A DNA stretch of 64,000 nt, from the NCBI RefSeq assembly GCF_057098645.1, contig NZ_CM169472.1; one strand, given 5' to 3'. The position numbers were made by a program, and so were the translations under genes. A model generated the notes under the pieces. The model worked only from the letters and a program-made list of their open reading frames with translations, did no database searches and was not told the DNA's origin. Each line of letters starts with the position of its first letter. Position 1 is the first letter of the stretch. Below, in pieces: positions 31,077 through 32,753 of the stretch.

Positions 31077-31553
31077 TTATACTCCATAGTCAGATGACGA
31101 CTTTCCCAGCATGCGCTTCAGAGTGTCGTCTTTATCGATGAAATGATGCTTCAGGGCCATAAATCCGTGCATAACGGACAGTACTACGACGCTCCACGCG
31201 AGCCAAAAATGCAGGGCACCGGCAAAGTCTGCCTGTGCGCCAGCGTCGGCAAGGGTCGCGGGGACGTCAAACCAGCCAAAAACGCTGATCGGTTTACCAT
31301 CGGCAGTTGAGATCAGATAGCCGCTGATGCCGATGGCGAACAGCAATAGGTACAATGCGAGATGTCCAGCTTTTGCGGCAAGACGAGTCATGGGCGAATA
31401 ACTCGGCAGCGGACCCGGCGGTGGAGATATGACGCGCCACAGAACGCGAATAACCAGCCCCATCATTAACAAAATACCGATGCTTTTATGCAGTTCGGGT
31501 GCTTTGTGATACCAGCCATCGTAATAACTGAGCGTGACCATCCACAGACCTAA
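31077..31553 (-). pseudogene. yceJ: yceJ (cytochrome b561 homologue) 3' fragment, separated from its 5' end by IS5
   Basis: Annotated ORF 31077..31643 takes its first 30 codons from inside the IS; authentic yceJ sequence begins at the CTAA duplication (31550-31553). Confidence 0.8.
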
Positions 31554-32749
31554 GGAAGGTGCGAATAAGCAGGTCATTTCTTCCCAAGCTGACTCGTTGA
31601 TTAAAATTTCGCGGATCTGGGCCGATTTTTTTCCCGCAAACACATCGAATCAGCCTATTTAGGCTATTTTTTCCACCATTTCTGGCGTTATTTCCGGTTT
31701 TTACTGAGATCTCTCCCACTGACGTATCATTTGGTCCACCCGAAACAGGTTGGCCAGGGTGAATAACATCGCCAGTTGGTTATCGTTTTTCAGCAGCCCC
31801 TTGTATCTGGCTTTCACGAAGCCGAACTGCCGCTTGATGATGCGAAACGGGTGCTCCACCCTGGCACGGATGCTGGCTTTCATGTATTCGATGTTGATGG
31901 CCGTTTTGTTCTTGCGCGGATGCTGCTTCAAGGTTTTTACCTTGCCGGGACGCTCGGCGATCAGCCAGTCCACATCCACCTCGGCCAGCTCCTCGCGCTG
32001 TGGCGCTCCTTGGTAGCCGGCATCGGCTGAGACAAATTGCTCCTCTCCATGAAGCAGATTACCCAGCTGATTGAGGTCATGCTCGTTGGCCGCGGTGGTG
32101 ACTAGGCTGTGGGTCAGGCCACTCTTGGCATCGACACCAATGTGGGCCTTCATGCCAAAGTGCCACTGATTGCCTTTCTTGGTCTGATGCATCTCCGGAT
32201 CGCGTTGCTGCTCTTTGTTCTTGGTAGAGCTGGGTGCCTCAATGATGGTGGCATCCACCAAAGTGCCTTGGGTCATCATGACGCCTGCTTCGGCCAGCCA
32301 GCGATTGATGGTCTTGAACAATTGACGGGCCAGTTGATGCTGCTCGAGCAGGTGGCGGAAATTCATGATGGTGGTGCGATCCGGCAGGGCGCTATCCAGA
32401 GATAATCGGGCAAACAGGCGCATGGAGGCGATTTCGTACAGGGCATCTTCCATGGCACCGTCGCTCAGGTTGTACCAATGCTGCATGCAGTGAATACGCA
32501 GCATGGTCTCCAGCGGATAGGGCCGTCGGCCATTGCCCGCCTTGGGATAAAACGGCTCGATGACAGCGGTCATATTCTGCCATGGCAGAATCTGCTCCAT
32601 GCGGGAGAGGAAAATCTCTTTTCGGGTCTGACGGCGCTTAGTGCTGAATTCACTATCGGCGAAGGTGAGTTGATGGCTCATGATGTCCCTCTGGGATGCG
32701 CTCCGGATGAATATGATGATCTCATATCAGGAACTTGTTCGCACCTTCC
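31554..32749 (-). mobile_element. IS5-family insertion sequence (~1.2 kb)
   Basis: Terminal inverted repeats GGAAGGTGCGAATAAG (31554-31569) and GGAAGGTGCGAACAAG (rc of 32734-32749); flanked by direct CTAA repeats at 31550-31553 and 32750-32753; carries one transposase ORF. Confidence 0.9.
31701..32681 (-). CDS. insH: IS5 transposase InsH
   Basis: 326 aa, [35 protein letters not shown] recognised. Confidence 0.92.
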
Positions 32750-32753
32750 CTAA

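Follow-up and report, generated by a model that had tools for sequence, protein, structure and literature searches.

What kind of mobile element lies inside the cytochrome b561 homologue gene yceJ of this strain, how recently did it arrive, and what would it mean for yceJ and for the neighbouring gene yceI? A preliminary description, made from the sequence of the 64-kb stretch of DNA analysed here (the window), had proposed a recent, strain-specific IS5 insertion. Our reading, to which we assign a probability of roughly 0.9, is that ISKpn26, recently arrived and likely carried in by a plasmid, broke yceJ in an Escherichia coli strain of the O145:H28 lineage, probably lowering the expression of yceI.

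An IS5-family element flanked by CTAA duplications

Reading of the sequence together with a scripted check of its geometry placed the element at positions 31554..32749, a span of 1196 bp. Its parts and its immediate surroundings are listed below, with a slash marking each join between the element and yceJ.

31554..32749, minus strand: complete copy of ISKpn26 (IS5 family), with the transposase running in the direction of yceJ
31554..31569, plus strand: IRR, the terminal inverted repeat GGAAGGTGCGAATAAG at the transposase-distal end, the same as the matching end of IS5
32734..32749, minus strand: IRL, the terminal inverted repeat GGAAGGTGCGAACAAG at the transposase-proximal end
31701..32681, minus strand: transposase gene, 326 aa, intact, the sole long ORF of the element
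31550..31553: target-site duplication CTAA, left copy
32750..32753: target-site duplication CTAA, right copy
Junctions of element and yceJ: ACCATCCACAGACCTAA/GGAAGGTGCGAATAAG and CTTGTTCGCACCTTCC/CTAAAGCAAACATGCC

The two 16-bp terminal inverted repeats (GGAAGGTGCGAATAAG vs GGAAGGTGCGAACAAG) agree at 15/16 positions; over the 64 kb the inverted-repeat motif is present at these two places and no others, as against 0 occurrences in 100 shuffles. The uninterrupted reference site contains a single CTAA, whereas here there is one on each side of the element. The geometry check thus bore out the anatomy first described for this locus, namely a ~1.2-kb element with imperfect 16-bp repeats, a single transposase ORF and CTAA duplications. 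These are the features of the IS5 family: a length of ~1.2 kb with repeats of ~16 bp, a DDE transposase and a 4-bp duplication at a YTAR target, YTAR being the target motif of IS5 (PMC5009759).

The transposase matched the NCBIfam model NF033581, 'IS5 family transposase', with 367 bits (cutoff 140), and the Pfam families DDE_Tnp_1 (2.9e-35) and DUF772 (6.3e-21). The DNA of its gene is identical to that of a copy annotated as WP_000019445.1 in the E. coli genome EPSSH018, to which we return below.

Assignment of the element to ISKpn26

The original label, IS5, held at the level of the family, to which the repeats, the transposase and the type of target all point, but it did not hold for the named element. 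On sequence identity we assign the element to ISKpn26 and not to IS5 proper: its match is complete with ISKpn26 copies (100%) and falls to 91.4% with IS5A of K-12. Plasmids CP082484.1 and CP058064.1 carry ISKpn26 copies that match it at every position (1196/1196), and the nearest copies carry the PGAP name 'IS5-like element ISKpn26 family transposase' (WP_000019445.1). A named element is conventionally recognized at >=95% nucleotide identity; for ISKpn26 that level was reached by proxy, against PGAP-named copies, while identity to K-12 IS5 over 1198 aligned columns fell below it.

The case for canonical IS5 of the K-12 insH type draws on likenesses of organisation. IS5A/insH1 (NC_000913.3, 273955-275149) has identical 16-bp repeats at both ends, the same organisation, a YTAR target and a 4-bp duplication, and the window transposase is identical to InsH1 at 320/326 residues (98.2%). 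The DNA of the two elements nevertheless differs by 98 mismatches and 5 gaps, 103 differences in all, and by length (1196 vs 1195 bp). None of these differences falls before element position 18, and ~40/103 are concentrated within the 150-bp non-coding transposase-distal end. With the full match to PGAP-named ISKpn26 copies on the other side, this comparison refutes canonical IS5 as the named element, which we hold to be very improbable, and leaves the label standing at the family level only. Properties mapped to the transposase-distal end in IS5 should not simply be carried over to the ISKpn26 copy in the window.

PGAP-named ISKpn26 copies at other loci have the same inverted repeats, the same 326-aa transposase and 4-bp duplications of CTAA or TTAA, and the window element itself shows no difference from ISKpn26. 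The commonest copies in E. coli are one base away: they have T and not C at element position 308, and therefore K274 and not R274 in the transposase. In the window, Arg274 stands two residues ahead of the putative catalytic Glu276. This exact variant is uncommon: it was seen in 8/3877 matching E. coli records and, among plasmids, in 2 out of at least 5000. Those plasmid records, at least 5000 in number, all carry the element as such; 3407 are conjugative, and most come from Klebsiella or Escherichia.

The insertion splits yceJ in its first transmembrane helix

Deletion of the element together with one CTAA gave a 188-aa ORF, MSFTNTPERYG...FAL/GLWMV..., which reads MSFTNTPERYGVISAAFHWLSAIIVYGMFAL/GLWMVTL... 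at the join. Over 600 bp, the reconstructed empty site is 100% identical to the intact annotated yceJ (WP_000011108.1) of many O145 genomes, and the site is uninterrupted in 5416/5426 complete E. coli genomes. The proposal that excision rejoins the reading frame exactly was thereby confirmed. A mismatch to a reference yceJ at the rejoined junction had been named in advance as the result that would speak against it, and the comparison, once run, found none. The insertion has left the following pieces.

32727..32843, minus strand: yceJ 5' stub of 38 aa, MSFTNTPERYGVISAAFHWLSAIIVYGMFALGKVRTSS, made of native codons 1-31 followed by 7 element codons and a stop
31077..31553, minus strand: yceJ 3' fragment, codons 31/32-188 and the stop, with its own start codon gone
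31077..31643, minus strand: chimeric ORF of 188 aa with a GTG start, a mechanical call made of 30 element codons and the yceJ 3' fragment

The split comes after Leu31, within the first hydrophobic/transmembrane helix (~residues 11-40). We take His18, His52, His145 and His159 of YceJ to be haem ligands, on the strength of the CybB literature. They align with His13, His45, His137 and His151 of CybB (PDB 5OC0, E = 2e-14), a protein whose haems are coordinated entirely by histidine. The stub keeps His18 only, and the 3' fragment, of 157 codons, carries the other three conserved histidines. Because the split sits in helix 1 and parts His18 from the three others, the YceJ of the window strain is almost certainly inactive. 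YceJ itself scored 63.9 bits against NCBIfam NF008566, the equivalog model of CybB, a superoxide oxidase, which is under the cut-off of 170; by this score we class it as a paralogue of CybB and not as CybB itself.

The ORF of 188 aa at 31077..31643, present as first described, is indeed a chimera. Its codons 1-30 (31554-31643) belong to the element and its codon 31, TTA, to the CTAA duplication, while the upstream context, ...AGGCTGATTCGAT/GTG, is without a convincing ribosome-binding site. EPSSH018 has the identical allele, which PGAP annotates as two pseudogene fragments of yceJ together with an ORF of 77 aa at the junction; its label for the same 3' piece is 'cytochrome b, incomplete, missing N-terminus'. 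Both ORFs, the one of 188 aa at 31077..31643 and the one of 77 aa, owe their existence to the insertion and are artefacts, and the locus is best annotated as a yceJ pseudogene interrupted by ISKpn26.

Possible effects on yceI

Downstream of yceJ on the same strand lie two further features.

30498..31073, minus strand: yceI, encoding a YceI-family periplasmic lipocalin (NF002994, 344.8 bits), the downstream operon partner
30461..30489, minus strand: terminator-like hairpin after yceI, with a 12-bp stem and 6 GC pairs; the region has no second strong one on this strand

The yceJ stop is followed after 3 nt by the start of yceI, which has its own GGAG ribosome-binding site. The gene order, in which a b561 gene comes directly ahead of a YceI-family gene and runs in its direction, is that of a two-gene operon. 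The pair yceJ-yceI has been listed as one unit, b1057-6 (PMC2731931), and cytochrome b561 plus YceI forms a predicted 2-gene operon of the LcoA-BcnA type in Escherichia, within a described stress system (PMC9113575). LcoA-BcnA of Burkholderia cenocepacia has the same architecture, with the cytochrome b561 gene directly upstream of the YceI lipocalin gene. Its role in the detoxification of lipid peroxyl radicals was, however, established in Burkholderia rather than in E. coli, and a shared function is assumed here for yceJ-yceI.

From the transposase stop to the ATG of yceI, 627 nt are untranslated. Polarity on yceI is plausible, since this long a stretch precedes the gene. Long untranslated stretches of RNA are typical substrates of Rho. 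On the minus strand, we found no credible intrinsic terminator between the element and yceI before the hairpin that follows yceI, and within the element that strand has a lone hairpin, a weak one of 6 pairs inside the transposase gene. Because the transposase gene is co-directional with yceJ and no intrinsic terminator was found, read-through into yceI from transcription of the transposase is also plausible, and polarity may be weak. A consensus scan of the minus strand at the element/yceJ junction detected no sigma-70-like site that could serve as an outward or hybrid promoter, although non-consensus signals are possible; an internal yceI promoter might likewise have been missed by the consensus scan.

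The host belongs to the O145:H28 lineage and the insertion is recent

By BLAST, the window is collinear with the O145:H28-lineage strain 95-3192, at 99.97% identity over ~54 kb. The alignment falls into two blocks, 10155-31553 and 32749-64000, which share CTAA and one further, ambiguous base of the reference, as is typical of a 4-bp target duplication. Over the ~54 kb, the two strains differ by 10 substitutions, 4 single-base indels and the insertion, the last being their sole structural difference. To the right of the element, 20 kb are nearly identical to the corresponding DNA of more than 20 complete genomes of the O145:H28 lineage, every one of which has an intact yceJ. We had considered PapRG-06-5 as a closer relative with a shared empty serX site, and rejected it since a 33-kb island is present there.

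When the element was added to the flank query, the number of matching places per O145 record stayed at 14 (14 to 15 in one strain). Because places per record do not rise, the O145 relatives are normally without IS5 or ISKpn26 copies. The insertion is supported as recent by this absence from its relatives, together with the intact duplication, the complete identity of the element to other copies and its being the sole structural difference over 54 kb. The age given in the preliminary description therefore stood. Its description of the insertion as strain-specific stood within the O145 lineage but not in absolute terms, as EPSSH018 carries the same variant at the same base and in the same orientation.

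Plasmids have been described as a source of chromosomal ISKpn26 (PMC12492035). From that report and from the abundance of the element on plasmids, a plasmid origin of the window copy is likely, as judged from a view of 64 kb of the genome.

The same insertion in EPSSH018

EPSSH018 (NZ_CP125889.1, 5176095-5177861) was the only other genome among 5426 with the junction. Its yceJ::ISKpn26 shares with the window the base, the orientation, the duplication and an element identical at 1196/1196 positions, while its flanks differ from those of the window at 77/~7400 positions. A search of metagenome contigs with the exact left junction returned 0 matches. MB30, S1-CAM-01-A and GN04592, which came up when the element was added to the 20-kb flank query, were rejected as further carriers: their yceJ is intact, and the extra copy of each sits at another place in that flank.

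Across 4 kb of flank, the window equals 95-3192 at 3999/4000 positions and EPSSH018 equals CAU16175 at 3999/4000; yceJ is intact in both 95-3192 and CAU16175. The two flank haplotypes differ at 38 sites in these 4 kb, the nearest to the element being 31434 and 32856. Since the flanks of each strain match those of its own relatives, whose yceJ is intact, two independent insertions, one in the window strain and one in EPSSH018, are favoured by the sequences. EPSSH018 itself has 19 matching places. Its relative PEC240, one of the 8 records with the exact variant, carries it elsewhere in the genome and has intact yceJ, so that the variant was already resident in the EPSSH018 lineage.

How surprising would such a coincidence be? 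K-12 contains 37,071 YTAR sites, and genome-scale IS5 hotspots have not been reported (PMC5009759). Taking ~74,000 site-by-orientation targets, we arrived at a rough estimate of order 1e-3 for a copy of this variant hitting one and the same site, in one and the same orientation, by chance. The presence of only 3 YTAR sites in yceJ, this CTAA, a TTAA and a TTAG, softens the coincidence. As a guess, based on the livestock sources of their relatives, the window strain and EPSSH018 may draw on a common plasmid pool.

Alternatively, homologous recombination, after transduction or conjugation, could have brought in the allele fully formed from an EPSSH018-like donor, with no transposition in the window strain. 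Such an import would account for a site, an orientation and a 1196/1196 element common to both strains, for the sharing of an uncommon variant that is resident in the donor lineage (PEC240) while the O145 lineage is normally without ISKpn26, and for the low estimate for chance. It would have to be a short tract, however, ending no more than ~120 bp from the left end of the element and ~107 bp from its right end, because the informative SNPs of the flanks are all native on both sides. Both crossovers would then need arms of <=120 bp beside a 1.2-kb heterology, which is inefficient, and no further imported tract was seen in 54 kb. The scarcity of YTAR sites in yceJ also leaves any insertion there few alternative positions. 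We consider import unlikely.

A second possibility is that the CTAA at yceJ codons 30-31 is a preferred or selected target of R274 ISKpn26, struck independently in two unrelated livestock-associated lineages. We hold this to be distinctly unlikely. If it were true, it would indicate target determinants beyond YTAR for the R274 transposase or, alternatively, a convergent loss of the YceJ-YceI membrane antioxidant system of the LcoA-BcnA type. An extended target consensus, suggested by several ISKpn26 loci that align 14-17 bp into the left yceJ flank, was rejected after extraction of eight loci as a selection bias, the hits having been ranked by BLAST score against that flank itself; the right flanks of the extracted loci, which are unbiased, had CTAA or TTAA only. 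A precedent for recurrence at a fixed position is mgrB::ISKpn26 in colistin-resistant Klebsiella pneumoniae, in which ISKpn26, too, knocks out a small chromosomal gene, by insertion at nt 75 (PMC8672221), and plasmids are the reservoir for the chromosomal hops (PMC12492035). The recurrence in mgrB took place under strong drug selection, whereas no selective agent is known for yceJ.

Selection, in which loss of YceJ or changed yceI expression would be beneficial in some livestock-associated niche and independent insertions into one of the few YTAR sites of yceJ would be kept in two lineages, appears improbable. The same knockout is found in two lineages, strain 23555 carries IS5 at the yceO stop codon just upstream of yceJ, UTME-9 carries IS1 ~125 bp upstream of yceJ, and the pair belongs, as noted, to a described stress system. 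Yet only 1 other genome in 5426 has the insertion and 5416 are uninterrupted, other disruptive yceJ alleles are not in excess, and the upstream insertions fall in an intergenic region of 30-35% GC, a kind reportedly favoured by IS1. An assembly artefact, with a repeat misplaced into yceJ, has a negligible probability: IS elements are a frequent source of misassembly but nothing specific points to one here, and the 4-bp duplication is perfect, both element ends are complete and the junctions are identical in the independently assembled complete genome EPSSH018.

Proposed course of events

For the window strain, we thus return to a recent transposition of ISKpn26 as the preferred reading. A complete and apparently active copy of this 1196-bp IS5-family element, common on conjugative enterobacterial plasmids, would have reached an O145:H28 host, normally copy-free, in the recent past, most probably by way of a plasmid; the insertion itself is young. 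The DDE transposase would have made staggered cuts at the YTAR-type target CTAA in yceJ codons 30-31, the repair of which would have doubled the 4 bp. Split in its first transmembrane helix, yceJ now encodes a 38-aa stub with His18 only, and the 157 codons that remain, with the other three histidines, are without a start codon. YceJ, a di-haem cytochrome b561 and the LcoA-type partner of the YceI lipocalin, would as a result be non-functional. Transcription from the yceJ promoter would cross the element and then the 627 untranslated nt before reaching yceI, whose expression would probably be lowered by Rho-dependent polarity and partly restored by read-through from the transposase gene.

Meaning of the insertion

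The event is an ordinary mutation, and the kind of event, the element and the exact allele are already in public data. Within these bounds, the strain can be told apart from its O145:H28 relatives by the insertion, a clean and datable marker. The insertion also indicates that the O145:H28 lineage recently gained ISKpn26, an element typical of multidrug-resistance plasmids. The recurrence at the same site of the same variant in EPSSH018 is a small puzzle, one that sets target choice by ISKpn26 against transfer of the allele. Finally, the strain would be a natural yceJ knockout, possibly with reduced yceI, and as such may be usable to address the role of cytochrome b561 and YceI in the detoxification of lipid peroxyl radicals in E. 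coli.

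Insertion sequences at and around yceJ

Features of the yceJ region, in window coordinates:
31486-31719, minus strand, 77-amino acid ORF across the element/yceJ junction (4233-4466 in the EPSSH018 locus)
31861, codon 274 of the ISKpn26 transposase
32850-33110, yceO-yceJ intergenic region, 30-35% GC
33104-33217, minus strand, yceO, encoding the 37-amino acid YceO

The 77-amino acid junction ORF is almost certainly an annotation artefact caused by the ISKpn26 insertion; its counterpart in EPSSH018, the strain with the identical insertion, is annotated in RefSeq as 'hypothetical protein' (WP_309598001.1).

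Position 274 of the transposase is polymorphic among E. coli ISKpn26 copies. Arginine is found in the window copy, in the EPSSH018 copy and in K-12 IS5; lysine occupies the position in the form most frequent in E. coli (WP_000019441.1). This residue lies two positions ahead of the putative catalytic Glu276, within the same 12-residue transposase motif. One ISKpn26 copy in strain 23AR1101 (NZ_CM132250.1) is flanked by CTAA on one side and CTTG on the other and, since these flanks differ, lacks a target duplication. The mismatch is consistent with rearrangement between element copies.

Just 5' of yceJ, other strains hold different IS elements. Strain 23555 carries a true IS5 (3655-4849 of its locus) at a CTAA overlapping the yceO stop codon, and UTME-9 carries an IS1 (about 2200-2970 of its locus) approximately 125 bp upstream of yceJ. 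This suggests that IS hits form a small cluster around the start (5') of the yceJ-yceI operon.

Small differences from the 95-3192 reference

Residue 32 of YceO is asparagine in the window, a private substitution at 33123, as opposed to the isoleucine of 95-3192, EPSSH018 and CAU16175. Relative to 95-3192, an A-run in the csgB-csgD intergenic regulatory region is off by one base at 16131, and further single-base indels fall at 10157 and 10171, at the tRNA-Ser 3' end and its junction, and at 58610, between rluC and rne. These four indels could be real, or could be homopolymer sequencing errors in either assembly.

The serX tRNA-Ser site

Features of the site, in window coordinates:
1-10154, ycdU/fatty-acid-synthase-like cluster
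10162-10249, minus strand, tRNA-Ser gene (serX)

The window strain has no island at serX: the tRNA gene directly adjoins the ycdU/fatty-acid-synthase-like cluster, the same arrangement as in K-12. All close relatives inspected (95-3192, RM12761 and PapRG-06-5) hold an island there. That of 95-3192 is CP4-like, with cah, dynamin and cbtA/yeeU genes; in RM12761 more than 100 kb separate the ycdU-cluster and tRNA-Ser markers, and the island of PapRG-06-5 measures about 33 kb. The empty site of the window strain represents either the ancestral state or the precise loss of an island.
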